Assembly (NCBI GenBank): GCA_964434425.1
Contig: CAYSVH010000013.1
Location: 13,976-77,975 of the forward strand
Reading direction: 5' to 3'
Length of the DNA: 64,000 bases
Source of the DNA: an uncultured Bifidobacteriaceae bacterium
GTDB lineage: Bacteria; Actinomycetota; Thermoleophilia; Miltoncostaeales; Miltoncostaeaceae
A model generated the notes under the pieces. It did not search any database and was not told the origin of the DNA. It was given only the letters and a program-made list of their open reading frames with translations. How positions within the stretch are numbered: position 1 is the stretch's first letter; each line of letters opens with the position of its first letter. The position numbers were made by a program, and so were the translations under genes. Of this stretch, positions 8,930 through 64,000 are shown in pieces.

Positions 8930-9059
8930 GCGCAAGTCTGGTGCCAGGCACCAGACTTGCGCCGACGGACGGACTCGCCGAAAATTGCCCTGAATGCAGG
9001 GTATTCGTGTTTGTGTGATTCGGCACGCGCAAGTTAAGTGCCTGGCACCAGACTTGCGC
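8930..9059. repeat. family-P composite repeat, copy A (two ~33-nt palindromes plus 64-nt linker), reverse orientation
   Basis: Perfect palindrome GCGCAAGTCTGGTGCC-A-GGCACCAGACTTGCGC (8930-8962), an AT-richer linker, then imperfect GCGCAAGTTAAGTGCC-T-GGCACCAGACTTGCGC (9027-9059). Homologous copies at 38076-38210, 52151-52245 and 57004-57132. Confidence 0.75.
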
Positions 9060-9152
9060 GCACCCCGAAATGGAGTCAGGCGGCGCGCGCCTCCCGCAGC
9101 ACCGTCGCCCACCAGACGAAGTCGTCGAACATGGCGTCGACCGACGGCAGGA

Positions 9153-9848
9153 CTACAGGCCCACCGAGGGCAGCCACTCGTCGAGCATGGCCGTGGCGGC
9201 ATCGGTCAGTGCCGGGCCGAAACGCTCGGCATCCCGGCGGATCTCACGTACGTCGACGCCGGCCGTCTCGAGTTCGTGAGCGTGCCCGATCAGCCACCGT
9301 TCGATCCGCCTCCAGTCGGCCTCGATGTGGAACTGCAGGCCCAGTGAGGCGCCCCGCTGGAATGCCTGATTCGGGAAGCCCGGCGTCGAGGCCAGCGACG
9401 GGGTGTCGGCGGGGAGCGTGAACGTGTCGCCGTGCCAGTGCAGCACCGGGACATCGATCAGGTGCCGCAACGGCGTCCGCGCACCGGTCTCGGTGATGGT
9501 CAGCGGGCCGAACCCGATCTCCTTTCTCGGACCGCGCGTGACCTCGCCACCGAGGGCGGCGGCCATGAGCTGCGCGCCGAGGCAGACACCGATCGTCGGC
9601 TTACCGTCCGCATGACGCGTCTGGATCGCAGCGACCTCCTTGGTGAGGAACGGGTAGTGCTCCTCGTCGTCCGCCGATATCGGCGCGCCCAGGACCACCA
9701 GGAGGTCGGCCGCGACCGCGGTGTCCAGGGAGATGTCCGGGGCGTCCATGAAACGGACGGCAAACCCCCGCGCCACGAGCAGTGGCTCGAGGATTCCCAG
9801 GTCTTCGAACGTCACGTGCCGGATGGCCACGGCCGTGCGAGGTCCCAT
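9153..9848 (-). CDS. class I glutamine amidotransferase-like protein
   Basis: 'GKPTIGVCLGAQLMAAALGG' nucleophile-elbow Cys and 'LGLQFHIEAD' His/Glu. Start set at ATG 9848 ('MGPRTAVAIRHVTFEDLG'); the ORF is open to 9980. Confidence 0.8.
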   Translation of the reverse strand: MGPRTAVAIRHVTFEDLGILEPLLVARGFAVRFMDAPDISLDTAVAADLLVVLGAPISADDEEHYPFLTKEVAAIQTRHADGKPTIGVCLGAQLMAAALGGEVTRGPRKEIGFGPLTITETGARTPLRHLIDVPVLHWHGDTFTLPADTPSLASTPGFPNQAFQRGASLGLQFHIEADWRRIERWLIGHAHELETAGVDVREIRRDAERFGPALTDAATAMLDEWLPSVGL

Positions 9849-11556: not shown

Positions 11557-11750
11557 CGGTGCCCCGGGGGTGAGGCTCGGACGATCGGGACCGAGCCCCC
11601 ACCCACCCCGGGAGTCGCGGTCCGGCGCCGCGCGATCGGGTTCGGGTGGGCGCCGTCATCACCGGACCGAGACGATGGCCCATGGCGATCGCGAGACGTG
11701 GTCGCGACCGACCCACTCGGAACGCGCCGCCGATCTCCGGCTTCGCGCGC

Positions 11751-11792
11751 GGTCAGGTGGGGTCGATCACCGGTGATCGACCCCACCTGACC
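11751..11792. repeat. 42-bp perfect palindrome (operator or bidirectional hairpin)
   Basis: GGTCAGGTGGGGTCGATCACC|GGTGATCGACCCCACCTGACC, 21+21 nt with no mismatch, 14 nt upstream of a TTGACA box. Confidence 0.85.
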
Positions 11793-11806
11793 GACTTGTC
11801 GGTTTC

Positions 11807-11841: not shown

Positions 11842-14800
11842 GTGAACGGATTCTGGATGTCGAAGCGACGAGATGCACGATGGCTCGCGCTCCTGGTGGT
11901 GGGACTGCTGGCCCTGGGACTCACCGGATTCGGCACGTCATTCGTCTCCGCGGAAGGAGGCGCACCGGGCGATACCGACCCGTTCACGCTGGTGGTGGTG
12001 CCCGACACGCAGAAGTACGCCCTCAGCCCGACGCTGCACCAGACTATCGGTGCACAGACCCAGTGGATCGTGGACCGGCGCAACGACCTGAACGTCAAGT
12101 TCGCGGTGCAGGTCGGTGACCTGGTCGAGAACTGGAACAACGCGACCGAGTGGGGGCGCGTCAGCGGTCACTTCCAGACCCTCGACACGGCCGCGCTCCC
12201 CTACGCCGTGCTCAGCGGGAACCACGACATGTCGCAGACCGGGCTCGCACCGCGCTTCGGCGAGTATTTCGGTCCGAGCCGCTTCGTGAACGCAGCGTGG
12301 AACTCGGAGAGCGTCCGTTACGGTGGGTACCTGGGGGACAACCAGTTCGGACCGGATCCGGTCGACCGGTTCAACCAGAACAACTACGCGCTCCTGACCG
12401 CGGGCGGGATGGATCTCCTCCTGCTCCAGCTCGAGTTCGAGTCGCCCGCGTACAGCCTGGCGTGGGCGCAGAAGGTCATCGACGCCCACCCGAACCGCCG
12501 GGTGATCGTCAGCACGCACGGGTTCATCCACACCGGCGGCAACCGTTCCAACACCGTCCTGCGCACCGACGGCAAGAGCGCCAACCAGGTCTGGGACGAG
12601 CTGATCTACCCGAACTGCAACGTGTTCATGGTCCTCAACGGGCACTGGCACGACGGTGACATCGGTGAGGCACGGCGAACCGACGCCAACGCGTGCGGGA
12701 CACCGGTGCACCAGATCCTCACCAACTACCAGAGCCGGGCGAACGGCGGCAACGGCTGGTTGCGCTACTACACTTTCGTCCCGGACCAGAACCGGATCGA
12801 GGCGTACACGTACTCGCCGACGCTCGGCACCTTCGAACAGGACGCCTCCAGCCGGTTCGACCTCGACTACGACATGAGCGGTACCCGTCTGGAGGTCCCG
12901 CTCCGAGGCGGCGACACATGGCGGTATCGCTACAGCGCGGGCACCTGGCCCAGCGGATGGGCCGCCCCGGGGTTCAACGACTCGGCATGGGCGCAGGGAC
13001 GTGCGTCCCTCGGCTTCGGAACGCCGGCGCGAGCAACCGTCGTCGACGTGCCTCCACCGACGTCCAACCGCCCCCTGTCCATGCTCTTCCGCAAGACGTT
13101 CACCGTCGACAACCCCGCCGAGTTGAGTCAGGTCAGAGTCATCACCCGGGCCGACGACGGCATCTCGGTGCGCGTCAACGGGCAGGAGATCGGCCGCCGG
13201 AATCTGCCGACCGGAACCATCAGCCACGCCACCTACGCCACACTCGCACCCAGGACGCACGACGCGACCGGCACTCCGACCGTCTTCGACGTGCCCGACG
13301 GTCTCCTCGTCAACGGCCAGAACGTCATCGCGGTATCGACACATCTGAACTACACGGCGACTCCGGACATCAGCTTCGACGCGACGATCACGGCGATCCG
13401 TGAAGGAGACGGCGGGCCTGTGGTTCCGGCGGCTCCGGTTGTGAGTGGTGGGGTTGAGGGGAACTCGGCGGTGGTGTCGTGGTCACCGGGTGACGGGGCT
13501 GCGCTGTCGGGCTTCGAGGTCTTTCGTGACGGCGTTCGTGTCGCTCAGCCGGGTCCGGCGGTGCGCGAGTATGTGGACTCCTCGGTGGTCCCGGGTGAGC
13601 AGTACCAGTACGGGGTTGTCGCCGTGGGTGCGGGCGGGCTGCGTTCTGAGGTGGCGACGACGGTCGTTCAGGTTCCGGGTGGTGGACCGGGTGTGCCGGA
13701 GGATGTGGTGTTGGTGGCGGAGGGTGTGCAGTGGCGGTGGTTGTTTTCGTCGTCGGCGTGGCCGTCGGGTTGGACGGGTGTGGGTTTTGGTGATGGTTCG
13801 TGGTCGTCGGGGTTGGCTCCGTTGGGTTGGGGTCATGCGTCGATCGCGACGAATATCGATGTGCCGCCGCCGACGTCGAATCGGCCGCGTACGGCGTTGT
13901 TCCGGCGTTCGTTCTCGGTGGTTCGGCCGGGTGAGTTGTCGTCGGTTCGGGTTGTGACGCGTGCGGATGATGGTGTGGCGGTGTGGGTGAACGGCACCGA
14001 GGTGGGGCGTGCCGGGCTTCCGTCGGGGGCGTTGTCGAATCAGACGTATGCGGTTGCGGCGCCGAGGACTCCGGCGGCGATCGCTGCGCCGGTGTCGTTT
14101 GATGTTCCCGTGTCGCTTCTGCGGGAGGGTGAGAACGTGATCGCGGTGTCGGTGCATCACAACTACCGCGGTACCCCCGACATCAGTTTCGACGCCACCA
14201 TCACCGCCGTCCGCACACCCGTCGGCGGGCCTGTGGTTCCGGCGGCTCCGGTTGTGAGTGGTGGGGTTGAGGGGGGTTCGGCGGTGGTGTCGTGGTCACC
14301 GGGTGACGGGGCTGCGCTGTCGGGCTTCGAGGTCTTTCGTGACGGCGTTCGTGTCGCTCAGCCGGGTCCGGCGGTGCGCGAGTATGTGGACTCCTCGGTG
14401 GTCCCGGGTGAGCAGTACCAGTACGGGGTTGTCGCCGTGGGTGCGGGCGGGCTGCGTTCTGAGGTGGCGACGACGGTCGTTCAGGTTCCGGGTGGTGGAC
14501 CGGGTGTGCCGGAGGATGTGGTGTTGGTGGCGGAGGGTGTGCAGTGGCGGTGGTTGTTTTCGTCGTCGGCGTGGCCGTCGGGTTGGACGGGTGTGGGTTT
14601 TGGTGATGGTTCGTGGTCGTCGGGGTTGGCTCCGTTGGGTTGGGGTCATGCGTCGATCGCGACGAATATCGATGTGCCGCCGCCGACGTCGAATCGGCCG
14701 CGTACGGCGTTGTTCCGGCGTTCGTTCTCGGTGGTTCGGCCGGGTGAGTTGTCGTCGGTTCGGGTTGTGACGCGTGCGGATGATGGTGTGGCGGTGTGGG

Positions 14801-15042
14801 TGAACGGCACCGAGGTGGGGCGTGCCGGGCTTCCGTCGGGGGCGTTGTCGAATCAGACGTATGCGGTTGCGGCGCCGAGGACTCCGGCGGCGATCGCTGC
14901 GCCGGTGTCGTTTGATGTTCCCGTGTCGCTTCTGCGGGAGGGTGAGAACGTGATCGCGGTGTCGGTGCATCACAACTACCGCGGTACCCCCGACATCAGT
15001 TTCGACGCGACCATCACCGCCGTCCGCACACCCGCCGGATGA
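11842..15042 (+). CDS. secreted calcineurin-like metallophosphoesterase with three jelly-roll (CBM-like) domains and two Fn3 domains
   Basis: Signal peptide 'WLALLVVGLLALGLTGFGTSFVSAEG'. Phosphoesterase motifs 'VVVPDTQKY', 'VGDLVENWN', 'LSGNHD', 'LNGHWHDG'. Three copies of 'W(R)Y...WPSGW...F.DS.W..G...LG(F/W)G' modules and two 'SW.PGDGAALSGFEVFRDG' Fn3 modules. Alternative ATG at 11857. Confidence 0.85.
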   Translation: MNGFWMSKRRDARWLALLVVGLLALGLTGFGTSFVSAEGGAPGDTDPFTLVVVPDTQKYALSPTLHQTIGAQTQWIVDRRNDLNVKFAVQVGDLVENWNNATEWGRVSGHFQTLDTAALPYAVLSGNHDMSQTGLAPRFGEYFGPSRFVNAAWNSESVRYGGYLGDNQFGPDPVDRFNQNNYALLTAGGMDLLLLQLEFESPAYSLAWAQKVIDAHPNRRVIVSTHGFIHTGGNRSNTVLRTDGKSANQVWDELIYPNCNVFMVLNGHWHDGDIGEARRTDANACGTPVHQILTNYQSRANGGNGWLRYYTFVPDQNRIEAYTYSPTLGTFEQDASSRFDLDYDMSGTRLEVPLRGGDTWRYRYSAGTWPSGWAAPGFNDSAWAQGRASLGFGTPARATVVDVPPPTSNRPLSMLFRKTFTVDNPAELSQVRVITRADDGISVRVNGQEIGRRNLPTGTISHATYATLAPRTHDATGTPTVFDVPDGLLVNGQNVIAVSTHLNYTATPDISFDATITAIREGDGGPVVPAAPVVSGGVEGNSAVVSWSPGDGAALSGFEVFRDGVRVAQPGPAVREYVDSSVVPGEQYQYGVVAVGAGGLRSEVATTVVQVPGGGPGVPEDVVLVAEGVQWRWLFSSSAWPSGWTGVGFGDGSWSSGLAPLGWGHASIATNIDVPPPTSNRPRTALFRRSFSVVRPGELSSVRVVTRADDGVAVWVNGTEVGRAGLPSGALSNQTYAVAAPRTPAAIAAPVSFDVPVSLLREGENVIAVSVHHNYRGTPDISFDATITAVRTPVGGPVVPAAPVVSGGVEGGSAVVSWSPGDGAALSGFEVFRDGVRVAQPGPAVREYVDSSVVPGEQYQYGVVAVGAGGLRSEVATTVVQVPGGGPGVPEDVVLVAEGVQWRWLFSSSAWPSGWTGVGFGDGSWSSGLAPLGWGHASIATNIDVPPPTSNRPRTALFRRSFSVVRPGELSSVRVVTRADDGVAVWVNGTEVGRAGLPSGALSNQTYAVAAPRTPAAIAAPVSFDVPVSLLREGENVIAVSVHHNYRGTPDISFDATITAVRTPAG
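13411..15034 (+). repeat. in-frame head-to-tail tandem duplication, 2 x 813 bp (271 codons each)
   Basis: 13411-14223 and 14224-15034 differ only at 13462-13464 (AAC vs GGT) and 14196 (C vs G at 15009). Out-of-frame ORFs 13445-13957/14258-14770 and 13483-14160/14296-14973 are identical or differ by 1 aa. Confidence 0.95.
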
Positions 15043-19589: not shown

Positions 19590-19662
19590 TGGGCCGTCTG
19601 GGACTCGAACCCAGGACCTTGGGATTAAAAGTCCCCTGCTCTACCAGCTGAGCTAACGGCCC
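19590..19662 (-). tRNA. tRNA-Lys: tRNA-Lys (anticodon TTT)
   Basis: Hand-folded cloverleaf: GGGCCGT/ACGGCCC acceptor, GCTC/GAGC D stem, anticodon loop CTTTTAA, CTGGG-TTCGAGT-CCCAG T arm, discriminator A. 73 nt, no encoded CCA. Confidence 0.95.
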
Positions 19663-38075: not shown

Positions 38076-38210
38076 GTGAGGCCGCTGGTGCCAGGCACCA
38101 GCGGCCTCACGCTTCAGCACACGCACCGGACAATCGCCTGGAAATCAGACTGTTCCGTTCTTGGACGCATGCGGGGAGTAGGCCGCCGGTGCCAGGCACC
38201 AGCGGCCTAC
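38076..38210. repeat. family-P composite repeat, copy B, reverse orientation
   Basis: Perfect 35-nt palindrome GTGAGGCCGCTGGTGCC-A-GGCACCAGCGGCCTCAC (38076-38110), a 67-nt linker, then GTAGGCCGCCGGTGCC-A-GGCACCAGCGGCCTAC (38178-38210). The linker is alignable to those of copies A and C. Confidence 0.75.
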
Positions 38211-43849: not shown

Positions 43850-43922
43850 AGGGTCGTAGCTCAACTGGTAGAGCACCGGTCTCCAAAACCGGGGGTTGGG
43901 GGTTCGAGTCCCTCCGGCCCTG
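43850..43922 (+). tRNA. tRNA-Trp: tRNA-Trp (anticodon CCA)
   Basis: Hand-folded: AGGGTCG/CGGCCCT acceptor, GCTC/GAGC D stem, CCGGT-CTCCAAA-ACCGG anticodon arm, GGGGG-TTCGAGT-CCCTC T arm. 73 nt. Confidence 0.95.
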
Positions 43923-43944: not shown

Positions 43945-44292
43945 ATGGCACGTAAACGCGACAGGAACACACGAGACGAGGGAGCCAAGGGCTCCTCGTC
44001 GGGCAAGGCCAAGGGTTCATCGCGCCCTCCGGCCAAGTCGGCGCGCGTGCGCCCGACCCCTGGCGGCAAGAGCCAGAAGGCCGGCTCCTACACGAAGGAC
44101 GTCCAGCAGGGCCGCTCGCGCCGCTTCGTGACCGAGGTCGTCGCGGAGATGAAGAAGGTCAGCTGGCCCACCCGCGTCGAGCTGCTTCAGGCGACCCTCG
44201 TCGTCATCGTGGCCGTCGCGATCATGGCCGTGTTCCTGGGGGGCGCCGACGTTGTCTCCGAGTTCCTCACCGACCGGATCTTCCCCAATTAA
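43945..44292 (+). CDS. secE: preprotein translocase subunit SecE
   Basis: Lys/Arg-rich N-terminus, then 'FVTEVVAEMKKVSWPTRVELLQATLVVIVAVAIMAVFLG'. Conserved position between tRNA-Trp and nusG. Confidence 0.9.
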   Translation: MARKRDRNTRDEGAKGSSSGKAKGSSRPPAKSARVRPTPGGKSQKAGSYTKDVQQGRSRRFVTEVVAEMKKVSWPTRVELLQATLVVIVAVAIMAVFLGGADVVSEFLTDRIFPN

Positions 44293-44458
44293 GATGGCTG
44301 ACTCCACGGTCTCGCGGTGTGGTGCACGTCCCCGGCGGTGCGAGTGCGCCACCGGACGTATCGGAGAGGACACCACCCCGTCTTTCGGCGTCCGGCGGCG
44401 CCCCGCACCCACCGTTGACGCCGCCCACATCCACGATTCCATGGCATCAACCTTCTAG
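44293..44458 (+). repeat. family-E structured repeat, copy E1 (contains an open 54-codon frame 44294-44458)
   Basis: Begins 1 nt after the secE TAA. About 82% identical, without indels, to 46203-46368, and homologous to the reverse complement of 62984-63121. 17-nt terminal inverted repeat and internal hairpins. Confidence 0.8.
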
Positions 44459-45494: not shown

Positions 45495-46202
45495 ATGCCC
45501 AAGCACGGAAAGAAGTACCGCCAGGCCGCCGAGGCCATCGAGCCCGGTGTGGCCTACAGCTCGCGTGATGCCGTCCGTCTTCTCAAGGCGCACGAGCTGA
45601 CGCGCTTCGACGCCACCGTCGAGGTCCACTTCCGCCTCGGTGTCAACGTCCGCCACGCCGACCAGCAGCTGCGCGGCACCATCGCGCTCCCCCACGGGAC
45701 CGGCCGCAGCGTCATCGTCGCGGTGTTCGCCGAGGGTGAGAAGGCGCGCGAGGCCGAGGCCGCGGGTGCGGAGGTCGTCGGCGGCGCCGATCTGGCCAAG
45801 CGCATCCAGGAGGGCTTCCTGGACTTCGACATCGTCATCGCCACTCCCGACATGATGGGCGAGGTCGGAAAGCTCGGCCGCGTCCTGGGTCCGGCCGGCA
45901 AGATGCCGAACCCCAAGACCGGCACCGTGACGTTCGACGTGGCGAAGGCCGTCGAGGACGTCAAGGGCGGAAAGGTCGAGTACCGCACGGACCGCACCGG
46001 CATCGTGCACCTCGGCATCGGCAAGTTCTCGTTCTCCGAGGACCAGCTGGTCGACAACTACCAGGCCGTGCTCGACGAGATCATGCGCGCCAAGCCGGCC
46101 GCCGCGAAGGGCCGCTACCTGCGGTCGATCACCCTCACCCAGACGATGGGGCCGGGCATCCCGATCGACACCGCGCAGACCGCCGAAGGAGTGGCCGCCT
46201 AA
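45495..46202 (+). CDS. rplA: 50S ribosomal protein L1
   Basis: '[33 protein letters not shown]...[33 protein letters not shown]'. Confidence 0.95.
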
Positions 46203-46368
46203 GATGGGCGATTCCACGGTCTCGCTGCGTGGTGCACGTCCCCGGCGGCGCGGATGCGCCACCGGGCGACCTGGAAAGGACACCGCCCTGTCCTTCGGCG
46301 CCCGGCGACGCCCCGCATCCACCGTGGCCGCACCCCACATCCACGATCCCATGGAGTCGCCCATCTAG
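46203..46368 (+). repeat. family-E structured repeat, copy E2 (open 54-codon frame 46204-46368)
   Basis: Begins 1 nt after the rplA TAA. Near-perfect 17-nt terminal inverted repeat GATGGGCGATTCCACGG ... CCATGGAGTCGCCCATC. Ends with TAG. Confidence 0.8.
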
Positions 46369-47888: not shown

Positions 47889-49022
47889 CTACTGCAGGTA
47901 ACGGCCGGACGGTCCGAGATCGGCGCCGTGCCGCGGGAGGTAGCAGTCGAGGTAGACGCGCGAGACGAGCTCTCGGCGGCTGCGGACGCCGGCCTTGTCG
48001 AAGATGGACTTCAGGTGATCCTGGACGGTGTAGGCCGAAACGTGGAGTGACGACGCGATCAGCCTGGTCTCGACCCCGCGCAGCACCATCTCGGTCACGT
48101 CGCGTTCGCGGGGAGTGAGACCGAAGGCGGCCACCACGAGGTCGAGGATCTCTGCCGGTCGGGCATCCTCGATGGTCACCACGACCTCGCCGGTCGCGTC
48201 GTCTCGGCCGGCCAGCGGTGCGGCGTGCAACACGAGCCAGACCCCGGACCCCGTACGGACGCGGGCACGGGGCAGTCCGGCCCCCGGAGCCGCGGCTACG
48301 GCACGGACCGCCCGGACCAGGTCCAGGATCGTGCTGAACGGATCCGTGTGATGGACGGCGGTCGCGAGATCCGCCAGTCGTCGCTCCGCTCCGGCGCTGA
48401 TGCGGACCACCTCGTCGTCGCAGCCGACGATGACGACGGCGGGACCCGTGCCGGTGAGGTCGACGATCGGCGAGTCCGCGAGCCGGTTCATGATCCCGCA
48501 CCGAACGCCCCGGGCGAACGCCTCCGAGAGCGACGCCAGGTAGTCGATCTCGGAGGGGCCGAAGGCCGGGTCGCCCGGAGCGCGCATCAACGCCATACCG
48601 CCCCACACGCCGGCCGGATCACGGAAAAGACAGCGAAGCTCGTCCGCGAAGCCGAACACCGGACCGTGGAGCCGGTCCATCCGCACCGAGCGGAGCACGT
48701 CACCTCCGGTCACGCTGTGGACGCCCACCGCGCACTGGGAGCCGCGCGCCAGCATTCGGAACGACGTCGGCTCCTCCTCGGCGTACTCGAGCTCGGCGAA
48801 CGCGTCGTCGTGTGAGTCCATCTCCGCCAGCGCCCCGTACTTGCGTCCGCTGGTCAGGATCATCGTGGCCGGGTCGTGCGTCACGACGCAGGCCGCCACC
48901 CAGGGCACAGCCCGCCGTATGGAGGACGTGGCCTCGGCGAAGAAGTCGTCCAGGTTGAGACCTCCCCGCGAGAGGACGTCGAGGTCCCCGCGGACACGTG
49001 CCTCCGTCAGGGAATCCCTCAT
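47889..49022 (-). CDS. LuxR-family regulator with N-terminal GAF-like sensor region (paralog 1)
   Basis: 377 aa from ATG 49022 ('MRDSLTEARVRGDLDVLSRGG'). C-terminal 'LTPRERDVTEMVLRGVETRLIASSLHVSAYTVQDHLKSIFDKAGVRSRRELV'. Confidence 0.8.
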   Translation of the reverse strand: MRDSLTEARVRGDLDVLSRGGLNLDDFFAEATSSIRRAVPWVAACVVTHDPATMILTSGRKYGALAEMDSHDDAFAELEYAEEEPTSFRMLARGSQCAVGVHSVTGGDVLRSVRMDRLHGPVFGFADELRCLFRDPAGVWGGMALMRAPGDPAFGPSEIDYLASLSEAFARGVRCGIMNRLADSPIVDLTGTGPAVVIVGCDDEVVRISAGAERRLADLATAVHHTDPFSTILDLVRAVRAVAAAPGAGLPRARVRTGSGVWLVLHAAPLAGRDDATGEVVVTIEDARPAEILDLVVAAFGLTPRERDVTEMVLRGVETRLIASSLHVSAYTVQDHLKSIFDKAGVRSRRELVSRVYLDCYLPRHGADLGPSGRYLQ

Positions 49023-49144: not shown

Positions 49145-50278
49145 CTAGGCCACGATTCCGCCGGAGGGACCCACCTCGTCGCCGAAGCGGGGCAGGTACT
49201 GGTCGAAGTAGACACGTGAGATGAGCTCTCGGCGGCTGCGGACGCCGGCCTTGTCGAACACGGCCTTCAGATGATCCTGCACCGTGTAGGCCGACACGTG
49301 CATCGCAGCGGCGATGGCCTTCGTCTCCACCCCGCGGAGGACCATGCTGGTCACCTCGCGTTCGCGGATGGTGAGACCGAACGCGGCGACCACCAGATCC
49401 AGGATCTCGGCGGGGCGCGCCTCCTCGATCGTCACCACGACATCGCCGATGGATCCGTCGCGGCACGCCAGTGGCGACGCATGGAGGACCAACCACGTAC
49501 CGGACGCCGTACGCGCGCGGGCCCGGGGAAGCCGGGCGTTCCTCTCGCGCGTCATCGCCCGTGCGGCCTGCACGAGACCGAGCACGATCCCCACCGGATC
49601 CGTGCGGTTGCACGCCGTGTTCAGATCCGCGAGCCGTTCCTCGGCGCCGATGCTCATCCGCACCACCTCGTCCTCGGCGTCGAAGATGACGACGGCGGGA
49701 CCGTTGCTCGCCGTGTCGACCACGGGTGAGTCGACGAGCCGGGCCATGATCCCGGACCGTATGCCGCGCGCGAACGCCTGGGACAGCGATGCCAGGTAGG
49801 CGACGTCGGCCGGGGTGAAGACGGGCGCGGAGGGCTCGCGCATCAGCGCCAGGCTGCCCCATACGCCGGCACCGTCGCGCAGCAGGACGCGGAGCTCGTC
49901 CGTGAACCCGTAGACCGGGCAGAGGAGGCGATCCATGCGCGGCGATCGCCTCACGTCGCCGTCGGTGAGGGTGTGCATGCTCACGGCGCCGAGCGGATGG
50001 TCCACCAGCGCCCGGAACGACGACGGGTCCTCGCCGGAGTACTCGATCTGCGCGAACAGGTCGTCGTGGGTGTCGATGTCCGCCAGTGCCCCGTATTTGC
50101 GGCCGCTGGTGAGTATCACCGTCGCGGGGTCGTGGGTCCCCACGCAGGCCCCGGTCCACGGCACCACCCGCTGGACCGCGGTGACCGCCTCCTCGAGGAA
50201 CTCGTCGAGCGTGAGCCCGCCCCGGGAGAGGACATCGAGGTCACTGACGACGCGGGCTTCGGTGAGTTGACGGCCCAT
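49145..50278 (-). CDS. LuxR-family regulator with N-terminal GAF-like sensor region (paralog 2)
   Basis: 377 aa from ATG 50278 ('MGRQLTEARVVSDLDVLSRGG'). Collinear with paralog 1, roughly two-thirds identical by eye. Same LuxR HTH. Confidence 0.8.
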   Translation of the reverse strand: MGRQLTEARVVSDLDVLSRGGLTLDEFLEEAVTAVQRVVPWTGACVGTHDPATVILTSGRKYGALADIDTHDDLFAQIEYSGEDPSSFRALVDHPLGAVSMHTLTDGDVRRSPRMDRLLCPVYGFTDELRVLLRDGAGVWGSLALMREPSAPVFTPADVAYLASLSQAFARGIRSGIMARLVDSPVVDTASNGPAVVIFDAEDEVVRMSIGAEERLADLNTACNRTDPVGIVLGLVQAARAMTRERNARLPRARARTASGTWLVLHASPLACRDGSIGDVVVTIEEARPAEILDLVVAAFGLTIREREVTSMVLRGVETKAIAAAMHVSAYTVQDHLKAVFDKAGVRSRRELISRVYFDQYLPRFGDEVGPSGGIVA

Positions 50279-52126: not shown

Positions 52127-52150
52127 ACCCGACGGCGGTCGGGGCGTCAT

Positions 52151-52245
52151 CTCCGGTGCCAGCCACCTAACACGTCCGTAGCGAATCGCACGAATCGAGA
52201 AGTGCCCGCGTACGGGGAACTCCGGCGGCCCGCCTGGAACAGCTG
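52151..52245 (+). repeat. family-P composite repeat, copy D (degenerate), forward orientation
   Basis: CTCCGGTGCCAGCCACCTAACACGTCCGTAGCGAATCGCACGAATCGAGAAGTGCCCGCG aligns with copy C GCTCGGTGCCAGGCACTTAACTTGCGCGTACCAAACCGCACGAACCAGAAGTGCCCGCT. The second arm (GCCCGCCTGGAAC) is eroded. Confidence 0.5.
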
Positions 52246-52423
52246 TCACCCTCCGTAGACGGCGCCAGAGGGGACACGTACCTCTGCGCGCACATGCGTC
52301 GCCGGACCGCGTCGGGGTGTTTCACGATGAGGTGCGTACGGCGGACCGTGGAAGGGTCCGCGGTCCGCTGCCCGAAATGTGTTCGAGCCGCGACAGCCGC
52401 GCGGCTCGACCTCCTCATCTCGC

Positions 52424-55504: not shown

Positions 55505-57028
55505 ATGACGTGGGTGGTCCTCGCTCTCGCGATCCTGGTGGTCGCCGGTTCGGTGGCGGCGGTGCTGGTCGACCGACGACGACGCGTGCGCATACGGCGC
55601 GACTCCGCCGTTCTCATCGATGTGATGAGATCGCACATGCGCGGTCAGTACGACGCCCGTGTCGCGGCCGGGCGCATCACGATGCTCGGCGATGTGGCCT
55701 CGGTGCTGAACGATCTGTCGGAGTGGGGGCAGGAGGCCGCCGAGCGCGACGACGAGCGGCAGCACTTGGACGGCGTGCTCCTCTCCATCAACCGGCAGGT
55801 GCGCGCGGAGCTCGACTTCGATGCGATCGCGCTGGGGGCGGCGCTGACGGTACAGGACGAGCTGGCCGTGGACCACGTGCGGCTGCGCGTGTTCTCGGAC
55901 GCACTGAACGCCGACGGCTTCGTCGTCTCGGTTCCCGAGGTCGCGCTGCACGAGCTGCCGCCGCTGCTGGAGGCGCTGTTCCAGCGGGTCGCGCTCGCGG
56001 CGTGGGCGACGGGAGGGGTTCCGCGCTTCCCCGGCCCCGAGGGGGACCCGCCGCTGATCTCCCGCGACGAGGAGCTCGCCGTGTGGCTGGAGCTCGCGCC
56101 GCTGGGCGTCGACACCTTCCTGGTGGTGCCCCTCGGTGTCACCGACGAGGTTCTGGGCTACATGATCCTGGGCCGGGGTCCGGCCGCTCCGCGATGGAGG
56201 CCGGCCGAGATCGATGCGGCCGGGGAGGTCGGTGTGTCGGTGGGGCAGGCACTGGCGAACGTCCGGATCGTCGCCCGTGAGTATCGGGTGGCCGTCGAGA
56301 TGCGCGAGATCGACCGTCAGAAGACCGAGCTCGTCTCGAACGTCAGTCACGAGCTCCGCACGCCGCTCACGTCGATCACGGGGTACGTCGAGATGCTCCG
56401 GGACGGTGAGTACGGTGATCTGCCCGCCGATGTCGATGCGACGCTCGCCATCGTGGAACGCAGCACCGCCCGTCTCCGCGAACTCATCGAGAACCTCCTC
56501 GTCGCCTCGCGGTCGGAGCTCGCACCGACCGAGCACGTACGCGAGACGGTCGACCTCCGGTCGGTCGTCGACGCCGCCGTGACGATGCTGGGTCCCGAGG
56601 CCCTGGCGCGCTCGGTCGCGCTGAACGCCGACCTCGGCACGGAGGACTCAGACGTCACGGGAGACCCCTCGGCACTCGAGCGGGTCGTCCTGAACGTCGT
56701 GAACAACGCCGTGAAGTTCACCCCCGCCGGCGGCACCGTCACCGTGACGCTCGCCGTCCGGGGAGTGATGGCCGTCGTCACCGTCGCGGATACCGGGATC
56801 GGCATCAGCGACGACGACCAGAAGCGCGTGTTCGACCGGTTCTTCCGTGGCTCCAACGCATCGCCCCGCGGCATCCGCGGTACCGGCCTCGGTCTCGCCA
56901 TCAGCCGTTCCATCATCGAGGACCACGGCGGCGCGATCACGCTCCGGTCCGTGGAGGGCGAGGGCACCACCGTCGAGATCGCGCTCCGTCGCGTGGAGGG
57001 GCACGCAAGCTCGGTGCCAGGCACTTAA
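55505..57028 (+). CDS. sensor histidine kinase (TM, GAF-like region, HisKA, HATPase_c)
   Basis: 'VSHELRTPLTSITGY' H-box, 'NNAVKFTP' N-box, 'DTGIGI', 'GTGLGLAI'. The last 8 codons plus the stop lie inside repeat copy C. Confidence 0.9.
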   Translation: MTWVVLALAILVVAGSVAAVLVDRRRRVRIRRDSAVLIDVMRSHMRGQYDARVAAGRITMLGDVASVLNDLSEWGQEAAERDDERQHLDGVLLSINRQVRAELDFDAIALGAALTVQDELAVDHVRLRVFSDALNADGFVVSVPEVALHELPPLLEALFQRVALAAWATGGVPRFPGPEGDPPLISRDEELAVWLELAPLGVDTFLVVPLGVTDEVLGYMILGRGPAAPRWRPAEIDAAGEVGVSVGQALANVRIVAREYRVAVEMREIDRQKTELVSNVSHELRTPLTSITGYVEMLRDGEYGDLPADVDATLAIVERSTARLRELIENLLVASRSELAPTEHVRETVDLRSVVDAAVTMLGPEALARSVALNADLGTEDSDVTGDPSALERVVLNVVNNAVKFTPAGGTVTVTLAVRGVMAVVTVADTGIGISDDDQKRVFDRFFRGSNASPRGIRGTGLGLAISRSIIEDHGGAITLRSVEGEGTTVEIALRRVEGHASSVPGT

Positions 57029-57132
57029 CTTGCGCGTACCAAACCGCACGAACCAGAAGTGCCCGCTATCCGACCTCTTCTTCCATGACGCACGACGGTG
57101 CGCAAGTTTCGTGCCTGGCACCGGGCTTGCGC
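57004..57132. repeat. family-P composite repeat, copy C, forward orientation
   Basis: CGCAAGCTCGGTGCC-A-GGCACTTAACTTGCG (57004-57035), a 64-nt linker, GCGCAAGTTTCGTGCC-T-GGCACCGGGCTTGCGC (57100-57132). It is the reverse complement arrangement of copy A. Confidence 0.75.
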
Positions 57133-62987: not shown

Positions 62988-63121
62988 GTGGTGGTCCGCT
63001 CCGCGGAGTCGTGGATGTGGGGTGCGTCAACCGAGGCCGGCCTGGGGTGGGCGGGTGGACGGGTGGCGCATCTGCGCGGCCGGTGGTGTGCACCACGCCA
63101 TGGGATCGCGGAGTCGGCCAT
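62984..63121 (-). repeat. family-E structured repeat, copy E3 (shorter; open 45-codon frame)
   Basis: The reverse complement ATGGCCGACTCCGCG...GGTGCAC...GATGCGCCACC...CCCCACATCCACGACTCC aligns with E1/E2 with a 27-nt internal deletion. It starts directly after the ABC exporter TAG, and its TGA overlaps the kinase ATG. Confidence 0.7.
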
Positions 63122-64000
63122 CTAGACCGTTGTCCGCTCGTTCGACCGGCGGCCGGGATGGAACGCGCCGTCCTCCAGCCGGACCACCCGGTCGGCGCGG
63201 GCGATCATCTCGGGATCGTGCGTGATCATGAGGACCGTACGGCCCCGGCGCAGCTCGGTGAGGGGGGCGGTCATGGCTTCGCGGCCCGCTGCGTCGAGGC
63301 CGGTGGTGGGCTCGTCGAGTACGACGATCGGTGCGTCGTGGAGCAGGGCGCGGGCGATGGCCAGTCGTTGCCGCTGCCCGCCGGACAGGCGTCGTCCGCG
63401 CTGGCCGACGTGCGATGCCAGGCCGTCCGGGAGGGCCGCGACGACCGCGTCCGCGCCCGAACGCAGGAGTGCGTTCGCGATCTCGTCGTCGGACGCGCCG
63501 GGGCGGCCGAGCTCGAGGTTGCGTCGGACGGTTCCGTTGAAGACGAGGGTCTCCTGGAGGAGAAGGGTGACGTTCTGGCGGAGTGACGCCAACGATAGTG
63601 ACCGGATGTCGGTGCCGTCGATCGTGATGCGTCCGGAGTCCGGGTCGTGGAAGCGCACGAGGAGCTTCGCGAGTGTCGACTTCCCCGCTCCGTTGTCCCC
63701 GATGATGGCCACACACTCCCCGGGGCGCACATCGAATGATGCGGAGCGCAGCGTCGGTCGCTGCACGCCGGGATAGGTGAAGGTGACGTCTTGGACGAAG
63801 AGCTCGCCGCGGGCGCGCCCGATGTCGAGGGCGTTCTCCGCCTCGGTGATGTGGACACGCTGGTCCATGACGTCGATGACACGCTCGGCGGACGCGGCGG
63901 CGGTGAACAGCGAGTTGACGATCGCCCCCAGTTCGCGGACGGGGCTGTAGAGCTGGCTGAGGTACGCGAGGAAGACGAGGAGCCCGCCGAGCGTGAGGCG
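63122..64000 (-). CDS. ABC exporter, fused permease/ATPase, C-terminal part (5' end outside window)
   Basis: 'GDNGAGKSTLAKLL', 'LSGGQRQRLAIARALL', 'VVLDEPTTGLD'. The frame stays open to base 64000 ('...LTLGGLLVFLAYLSQLYSPVRELG' is a TMD6 region). Confidence 0.85.
   Translation of the reverse strand, partial: RLTLGGLLVFLAYLSQLYSPVRELGAIVNSLFTAAASAERVIDVMDQRVHITEAENALDIGRARGELFVQDVTFTYPGVQRPTLRSASFDVRPGECVAIIGDNGAGKSTLAKLLVRFHDPDSGRITIDGTDIRSLSLASLRQNVTLLLQETLVFNGTVRRNLELGRPGASDDEIANALLRSGADAVVAALPDGLASHVGQRGRRLSGGQRQRLAIARALLHDAPIVVLDEPTTGLDAAGREAMTAPLTELRRGRTVLMITHDPEMIARADRVVRLEDGAFHPGRRSNERTTV

Follow-up and report, generated by a model that had tools for sequence, protein, structure and literature searches.

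A four-copy palindromic repeat in an actinobacterial-looking genome shares its core with the inverted repeats around TIRYT-type Y1 transposase genes of other phyla

The window, which is the whole 64-kb stretch of DNA analysed here (GC ~0.69 and actinobacterial-looking), carries four copies of a repeat unit made of two palindromes and a linker, of which units A, B and C are intact and unit D is degenerate (Table 1). Unit A is bordered on one side by the stop codon of a gene (+) for an ABC ATPase resembling UvrA and on the other by what remains of a flavodoxin-like gene (-), its last 26 codons. Unit B lies downstream of a gene of the exonuclease III family and ahead of an ABC ATPase gene, and unit D downstream of an FAD oxidase gene and ahead of a response-regulator gene. 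Unit C overlaps a histidine-kinase ORF on the plus strand (55505-57028), the end of which (...HASSVPGT-TAA) falls inside the left palindrome. All four units start 0-65 nt past a stop codon, and the genes on either side of unit A are convergent. The genes adjoining the units are functionally unrelated, and both orientations of a unit relative to its upstream gene occur.

Table 1. Palindromes, linkers and residual cores of the four repeat units in the 64-kb window.
Feature	Position	Strand	Sequence and remarks
Unit A, left palindrome	8930-8962	+	GCGCAAGTCTGGTGCC-A-GGCACCAGACTTGCGC; 16/16 arm pairs
Unit A, linker	8963-9026	+	64 nt, GC 0.55; the ~30 nt adjoining the right palindrome are common to C and D
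Unit A, right palindrome	9027-9059	+	GCGCAAGTTAAGTGCC-T-GGCACCAGACTTGCGC; 3x3 internal mismatch (TAA/CAG); conserved asymmetric arm AAGTTAAGTGCCTGGCACC
Unit B, left palindrome	38076-38110	.	GTGAGGCCGCTGGTGCC-A-GGCACCAGCGGCCTCAC; different arm subfamily
Unit B, linker	38111-38178	.	Without significant similarity to the A, C and D linkers
Unit B, right palindrome	38179-38209	.	TAGGCCGCCGGTGCC-A-GGCACCAGCGGCCTA
Unit C, palindrome equivalent to A-right	57003-57036	-	Minus-strand reading CGCGCAAGTTAAGTGCC-T-GGCACCGAGCTTGCG
Unit C, linker	57037-57099	-	Homologue of the D linker and of the terminal part of the A linker; retained in the orthologous copy of a related MAG
Unit C, second palindrome	57100-57132	-	Plus-strand reading GCGCAAGTTTCGTGCC-T-GGCACCGGGCTTGCGC
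Unit D (degenerate)	52141-52260	-	Core GGTGCCAGCCACC at 52155-52167
Unit D, linker segment homologous to C	52168-52215		
Unit D, residual second core	~52231-52241		ccgCCTGGaAC; 8/11 by manual count

The core GGTGCC-W-GGCACC is present in seven palindromes of the window, all of them inside units A to D. With 0-1 mismatch, GGTGCCWGGCACC gives seven matches, 7/7 inside the four units, and with up to two mismatches it gives 10 matches against 3.0 expected, a number that 0/100 shuffles reach. A profile built from the four units and run over the whole 64 kb matched only those four. The four-unit repeat is real and non-random, and a reading of all four sites confirmed the copies of the original prediction in place and in sequence. 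The palindromes are spaced 97 nt apart, start to start, in A and C and 101 nt apart in B, with lengths of 33 nt (twice) in A and in C and of 35 and 31 nt in B, whereas in unit D the second core is ~75 nt from the first. The outer arms had been predicted to vary between copies while staying self-complementary, and this is borne out, the arm sequence being GCGCAAGTCTGG in A and C and a quite different GAGGCCGCTGG in B. Units A and C share 80% identity over 61 nt and the same W=A ... W=T order of cores, and in both the palindromes pair in the inverted manner of REPINs (arms 87% complementary in A, 91% in C). Unit A folds as a single long hairpin (-99.2 kcal/mol, z = -10.7). "BIME-like" is a fair description of this layout.

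The linker, which had been described as conserved in all four copies, has a significant stretch common to A, C and D only. In register from the palindrome, A-right and C-left match at 19/30 positions (p=0.0004) and A-right and D at 15/30 (p=0.005), and A-right has 25 bases identical to the reverse complement of C-left, ACGCGCAAGTTAAGTGCCTGGCACC, a stretch that includes the arm TTAAGT, unpaired with its partner. Local alignment of the linkers alone singles out C and D (23/26, one gap, p<=0.0005) as the sole significant pair, with A-C at p=0.74; the alignment of the A and B linkers quoted in the prediction is at chance level (p=0.16). The B linker in register matches none of A, C and D (best 12/30, p=0.10). 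Since the in-register and linker alignments are significant, A(+), C(-) and D(-) constitute one polar subfamily, and B is a second subfamily, of undefined orientation because it is symmetric. The predicted polarity accordingly stands for A, C and D and fails for B, which had been placed in the orientation of A and has a linker that matches nothing.

The left palindrome of unit C holds the last eight codons of the histidine-kinase gene (HASSVPGT) and its TAA stop codon (57026-57028), so the statement that all copies are intergenic does not apply to this unit. A 507-aa kinase product is on record for the source contig. In a related MAG (L142, 12720-12760) the kinase is also 507 aa long, and an alignment reading places a TGA at the equivalent position of a degenerate C copy. 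With the kinase stop inside the repeat in both lineages, the repeat has formed the 3′ end of this gene since before the lineages split.

Close relatives were compared in the form of two MAGs labelled 'uncultured Bifidobacteriaceae bacterium', with a UvrA-like protein 90% identical to that of the window. GCA_964531025.1 and GCA_964406645.1 are assemblies of related MAGs. At the A site, the doublet of the window is represented by single palindromes in these two relatives: one aligns with A-left, and the other with A-right, its core having two transitions that keep only G.T pairs. At the C site, the related MAG has the whole unit at the same place in degenerate form, with cores GGTGTCCGGCGCT and CGTGCCCGGCGCC and much of the symmetry lost. 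The identity of this orthologue to the window is 70% in the left palindrome, 67% in the linker and 67% in the right palindrome, compared with 71% in the downstream non-coding DNA and 81% at the end of the kinase gene. The D site of the relative is occupied by an L12-like gene and lacks the unit. The orthologous copies in relatives mean that at least the A-site and C-site copies predate the lineage split. The C copy drifts roughly as fast as neutral DNA, and there is interconversion of doublets and singlets. This pattern matches descriptions of REPINs and is evidence against a host element under strong constraint.

The surroundings of the A site differ from those of relatives in gene content. 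At 9076-9153, the remaining last 26 codons of the flavodoxin-like (FMN_red) gene are 88% identical to those of the relative, and this remnant abuts the stop codon of a GATase gene. An HxlR gene and a gene for a 443-aa protein are missing from the window, and two relatives have both between the AraC-like and UvrA-like genes. These genes were lost by a deletion, one end of which lies ~16 nt away from unit A. In one related MAG (L136, 1-454), cas1 and cas2 are found ~5.5 kb from the AraC-like gene.

A collection holding one genome per species was scanned for two GTGCCWGGCAC cores 80-96 nt apart, yielding at least 117 loci in Actinomycetota, Bacillota, Chloroflexota, Planctomycetota, Acidobacteriota, Myxococcota, Spirochaetota and others. 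Among the matches listed, those from Actinomycetota belong to Actinomycetes, Gaiellales/Thermoleophilia, Acidimicrobiia and 'Bifidobacteriaceae' MAGs, and the cores occur either as window-like doublets or as tandem arrays. In 360 distinct cores from the listed matches of these at least 117 loci, the next base outward is G in 59% and, on the other side, C in 75%; as these flanking positions are left unspecified by the scan pattern GTGCCWGGCAC and are nevertheless G/C-biased, the 13-mer is conserved beyond it. The 20-mer CAAGTTAAGTGCCTGGCACC, common to A and C, is found exactly in five metagenome contigs with GC contents of 0.38-0.55, where it is again repeated and intergenic. Conservation of an asymmetric 19-20 nt across such different GC contents points to a conserved recognition sequence and not to a generic GC-rich hairpin.

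Wastewater metagenomes and related MAGs contain related copies in abundance, and in a wastewater metagenome the word depth is 432-617 over the palindromes versus ~5-80 over the flanks. Wastewater metagenome reads compared with the region provided no usable empty site, the relatives being too divergent, and a blastn search of unit A against 72,556 plasmids gave no match. A full-text literature search for the core sequence retrieved no bacterial paper that prints it. Among the Actinomycetota doublets listed, 32 of 48 have central W bases that suggest a direct and not an inverted pair. In 51 actinobacterial palindromes read on the W=T strand, the mismatches between arms are G.T in 43 cases versus A.C in 21, a bias that fits folding of the W=T strand and is given little weight because the copies are not independent.

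Several other arrangements of the core were observed in this collection. Tight tandem arrays with periods of 21-48 nt are present at L001, L036, L078 (Pseudalkalibacillus), L003/L099 (Anaerolineae), L037 and L085. In Gaiellales/Thermoleophilia (L010, L042, L049, L059, L064, L068, L073, L074 and L090), a conserved subterminal motif cTGTGGACgrTTyGTCAC...tcgtaac is located 10-45 nt 5′ of the W=T core, and its TGTGGAC(A) resembles the DnaA box of high-GC Gram-positives. Homology of this motif to the window linkers was considered and rejected, as an nhmmer profile had no match there. At L121 (14176-14209) and L122 (3113-3146), AAGTTAAGTGCCTGGCACC is present in two copies of direct orientation next to the broken end of a DEAD/DEAH-type helicase gene read in three frames, suggestive of an insertion or a truncation where the repeat lies.

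ORFs bracketed by cores were sought among the matches listed, leading to L114 from an Acidobacteriota MAG. This locus contains two tandem genes for a 329-aa Y1_Tnp protein, each between AAAGGTGCCAGGCACTCACTTATGATGTTA and its exact reverse complement, with two solo copies downstream. The protein consists of a Y1_Tnp domain (IS200-like, HUH; Pfam PF01797) and a C-terminal DnaA_C-like HTH, and among solved structures its profile matches 4er8, the TnpA-REP of E. coli (E 9e-4), and 1j1v, a DnaA domain IV (E 2e-4). Enzymes of this type and their elements were named TIRYTs and TIRtrons by Di Nocera, De Gregorio and Rocco in 2013, who described GGGGWSAS in many TIRs, recognised an acidobacterial group with sharp limits and called the TIR families 'moderately abundant', a number of these being self-complementary, dispersed and in dimers or clusters (PMC3733652). 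Quentin et al. (2018) assign TIRYT-type proteins to subclass 2.1, with DnaA_C/HTH extensions, and found no REP-like sequences near subclass 2.1 genes (PMC6006769). Against the NCBIfam model NF047646, 'REP-associated tyrosine transposase', the TIRYT proteins score 74-81 bits at a cut-off of 80, and a search of 1.84 billion proteins places 43,957 clusters (50% identity, E<=0.001) in the TIRYT-type family.

Homologues of the L114 protein at L123, L124 and L125 (53-59% identical) are core-flanked in 3/3 cases and in the same inverted arrangement: the core is the outermost part of an inverted repeat of 20-30 nt and has W=A on the upstream side of the gene and W=T on the downstream side. The W=A ... 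W=T order of units A and C agrees with that of these flanks. The more distant homologues at L132/133, L131 and L135 have the ends GGTGCCAGG.., GTACCAGG.. or GTACCTGGCACC, those of L132/133 and L131 also reading GGTGCCAGGTCC.. and GTACCAGGTCC... The core flanks Y1 genes at these seven loci, mostly Acidobacteriota (L114, L123, L124, L125, L132/133, L131 and L135), and is in other phyla a TIR next to TIRYT genes, which holds for the core and not for the window copies. Remote Y1 homologues on Rhodospirillum and Sporomusa plasmids carry GGGGTC-A-GACCCC or GGGGTCAGGCC at the same place, and GGGGTC-A-GACCCC is a differently spelled end of the same design that matches the published motif GGGGWSAS. The core itself departs from that terminal motif, GGTGCCAG fitting 6/8 positions with T for G3 and C for W5; because more distant homologues carry GGGGTCAG, the core is a variant spelling of it.

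Searches with tblastn and hmmsearch detected no Y1 gene in the 64-kb window and none in ~60 actinobacterial 8-kb loci among the matches listed. All-against-all clustering of 3,916 ORFs from the at least 117 loci returned, apart from the Y1 cluster, housekeeping families only. No TIRYT relatives were found in viral contigs and no actinobacterial TIRYT among the plasmid homologues, and the name-bearing members of the family are all Acidobacteriota or Methylomirabilota, with no actinobacterial one. The high-GC-looking representatives P0131, P0134 and P0126 do have the core; P0134 and P0126 were rejected as actinobacterial TIRYTs, the named members of their groups being acidobacterial, and P0131 is nameless. 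A further candidate for a high-GC TIRYT with the core, P0168, was rejected as its HUH motif is changed to RYH and its flanks have no core. Replacement of the first HUH histidine (RYH/RFH) is seen in five high-GC-like homologues (P0168, P0182, P0170, P0190 and P0157), and the sole readable context of these, L130 (GC 0.73), has flanks without the core. Such homologues may be inactivated or domesticated derivatives.

The original prediction offered four candidate roles, and the RAYT-mobilised repeat is the favoured one, as the core ends the TIRs of RAYT-like Y1 genes at seven loci. The units are probably non-autonomous REP/REPIN-like doublets that form a 'TIR repeat family' of TIRYT-class Y1 enzymes. 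The step from having the same core as TIRYT ends to having been moved by a TIRYT in this lineage is one to which we give somewhat better than even chances. Because the cognate gene is absent from the window and from the actinobacterial loci, we infer the TIRYT assignment, and with it the action of a TIRYT or of any Y1 enzyme on the copies of this genome.

In the mechanism proposed, GGTGCC-W-GGCACC would be the recognition end of a RAYT-like Y1 (HUH) clade with a C-terminal HTH resembling DnaA domain IV. The enzyme, if it acts like TnpA of IS200/IS605 and TnpA-REP of E. coli, would bind the short core hairpin on single-stranded DNA, on the W=T strand and probably during replication, and would cut and rejoin beside the hairpin such that pairs of ends with no gene between them could be copied or moved. 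A cognate TIRYT in the same genome would be expected to have inverted GCGCAAGT..GGTGCC arms as its flanks. The copies are old, vertically inherited and decaying, in keeping with the degenerate unit D and with orthologues that are degenerate or single palindromes. Sites just past stop codons may be places that tolerate insertion, and any effects on the host, such as an mRNA 3′ hairpin or the stop codon supplied to the kinase gene, would be a by-product.

Some observations count against the TIRYT reading. The core that ends the TIRs of TIRYT genes is bare and 11-13 nt long, while in the window it occupies the middle of a palindrome of 31-35 nt; the window and the ~60 listed actinobacterial loci have no Y1 gene; and the central W suggests direct-type pairs in the majority of the listed actinobacterial doublets noted above. 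This last point would suit a miniature element of another transposon family, either an IS200/IS605 PATE or a DDE MITE with palindromic TIRs, since direct doublets are also the arrangement of IS200/IS605 LE/RE hairpins, and the shared core would then be due to convergence or to an independent recognition site. In addition, unit A folds in a MITE-like manner, its best Rfam near-matches being MITE-like plant miRNA precursors, and the Actinobacteridae are reported to have only IS200-type Y1 genes, of subclass 1.1 (PMC6006769). Convergence is, however, hard to reconcile with 13-20 nt identical at TIRYT ends and in unrelated phyla, and ORF clustering over the at least 117 loci found no recurrent transposase beside the units. 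Neither A nor C shows an evident target-site duplication. PATEs are likewise short and gene-less, with two hairpin ends of a Y1 element and no target duplication, but their hairpins are subterminal, direct and different from the window core, and no IS200/IS605 copy with window-type ends was found in the 64-kb window or in the loci among the matches listed. An origin from another transposon family is considered unlikely.

A primary role as a host cis-element, whether as paired 3′ hairpins for termination or mRNA protection or as an operator pair for a dimeric DNA-binding protein, draws on the position of the four units shortly past stop codons, with A between convergent genes, and on the fact that REPs stabilise mRNA. 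The excess of G.T over A.C mismatches is also expected from RNA folding, and the perfect 6+1+6 symmetry of the core is of the kind seen with dimeric HTH proteins. Termination nonetheless finds no support in the sequence, as no palindrome is followed by the T/U run of an intrinsic terminator, the palindromes being succeeded by GCACCCCGAAAT, CTTCGATGTC and GAACGGCCCC, and 3′ ends are not the location expected for operators. With respect to the gene upstream, units of either orientation are found, and the neighbouring genes are functionally unrelated; the C orthologue has diverged like neutral DNA with its symmetry largely lost, and the D site is empty in the relative. A host element as the primary function therefore appears quite improbable.

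The conserved polar linker stretch of ~30 nt that A, C and D share beside one palindrome could also belong to a small RNA gene bracketed by two hairpins, a discrete transcript that had been among the roles proposed. Rfam searches at gathering and at permissive thresholds identified two tRNAs in the window (19590-19662, minus strand, and 43850-43922, plus strand) and only chance matches of miRNA-like hairpins on the unit, so that no Rfam family corresponds to the units. As the B linker is unrelated and the C linker is 67% identical in the relative, like the flanking non-coding DNA, a small RNA is very unlikely. Outward-facing sigma-54 promoters, for which the A and C palindromes offer TGGCAC-N5-TTGC on the outward strand and all four fit the GG-N10-GC spacing of the -24/-12 consensus, are left with next to no probability, as the TTGC (-12) element is absent from B, D and copies elsewhere, TGGCACC is followed by unrelated sequence in other phyla, the outward strands face gene 3′ ends and, to our knowledge, Actinomycetota are not known to encode RpoN.

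The reading as TIR repeats of TIRYT-class enzymes places the units close to several known systems without making them identical to any. E. coli BIMEs are pairs of PU/REP sequences whose conserved linkers include the IHF-binding L. Like the window units, they consist of palindromes with a linker that is conserved within a subfamily and lie between genes, often convergent ones, but their sequence is different, the units here have no GTAG tag and linker conservation is confined to the A/C/D subfamily. The units do have the REP-type trait of short, imperfect, multicopy extragenic palindromes in pairs with a set spacing and, in unit A, the REPIN trait of inverted REPs that fold as one long hairpin. 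Membership in classical REPs was rejected, since the 5′ GT[AG]G tag is lacking and the feet are preceded by GGGCGT, GGCAC, GGGGCA and GACGGT.

REPINs of the REPIN-RAYT system (Bertels and Rainey 2011, PMC3116915) resemble the units in having two palindromes with a ~64-nt spacer that form one long hairpin, in being extragenic and multicopy, and in long vertical inheritance with singlets as decayed doublets. They differ in the GT[AG]G head, which the window units do not have, and in sequences that are typically lineage-specific, whereas different phyla have the window core in common; the enzyme associated with it is of the TIRYT class, not a group 2/3 RAYT. With TIRtrons the units share the design of the terminal motif (GGTGCCAG here versus the published GGGGWSAS) and, in other genomes, a RAYT-like Y1 protein with DnaA_C/HTH flanked by the core. 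The window palindromes are unlike those of TIRtrons in being 31-35 nt long with a central core that fits the consensus at 6/8 positions, and the host is actinobacterial, a group for which neither PMC3733652 nor PMC6006769 reports TIRYTs or such repeats. The repeat is thus a probable REP/REPIN-like TIR repeat family whose core is conserved unusually widely, and its host belongs to a phylum without a report of the enzyme class.

It is possible, if rather doubtful, that GGTGCC-W-GGCACC, often extended to AAGTTAAGTGCCTGGCACC, is a cross-phylum recognition site of one HUH/DnaA-HTH clade whose element families persist in Actinomycetota without a resident enzyme. Such a site would differ from ordinary REPs, which are lineage-specific. 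The large families of Actinomycetes, Thermoleophilia/Gaiellales and Acidimicrobiia would then persist without an enzyme of the TIRYT class, either because a Y1 enzyme of actinobacteria that is still undescribed mobilises them in trans or because the palindromes have a host function possibly linked to replication, an idea that takes up the DnaA-box-like TGTGGAC beside the core in Thermoleophilia units.

For Proteobacteria there are good descriptions of REP/REPIN sequences and of the Y1 transposases that belong to them, whereas TIRYT-type elements have hardly been studied, and we know of no TIRYT that has been tested biochemically so far. An end of 13-20 nt that is identical from Acidobacteriota to Bacillota-like and actinobacterial genomes provides a concrete substrate for such tests, for which AAGTGAGTGCCTGGCACC and the AAGTTAAGTGCCTGGCACC of the window are candidates. 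The core can also function as a search key for thousands of intergenic MAG palindromes that are otherwise taken as terminators or regulatory sites. For the source genome, the four loci would be old relics of selfish DNA and not a regulon, one of which became the 3′ end of a kinase gene.

Further repeats in the window are distinct from the units described above. A perfect 44-nt palindrome, CGGTCAGGTGGGGTCGATCACCGGTGATCGACCCCACCTGACCG, is located at 11750-11793 and is unrelated in sequence to the family; it is followed by sequence containing TTGACA. At 13319-15026, a period of 813 nt is present three times in tandem with 76-90% identity, presumably a repeated domain in a large coding region. Diverged duplicated segments with 70-82% identity are found at 47904-48600 and 49160-49856 and at 44290-44458 and 46200-46368, with a diverged inverted duplicate in the same identity range at 46202-46271 and 63054-63123, and these are probably paralogous genes.
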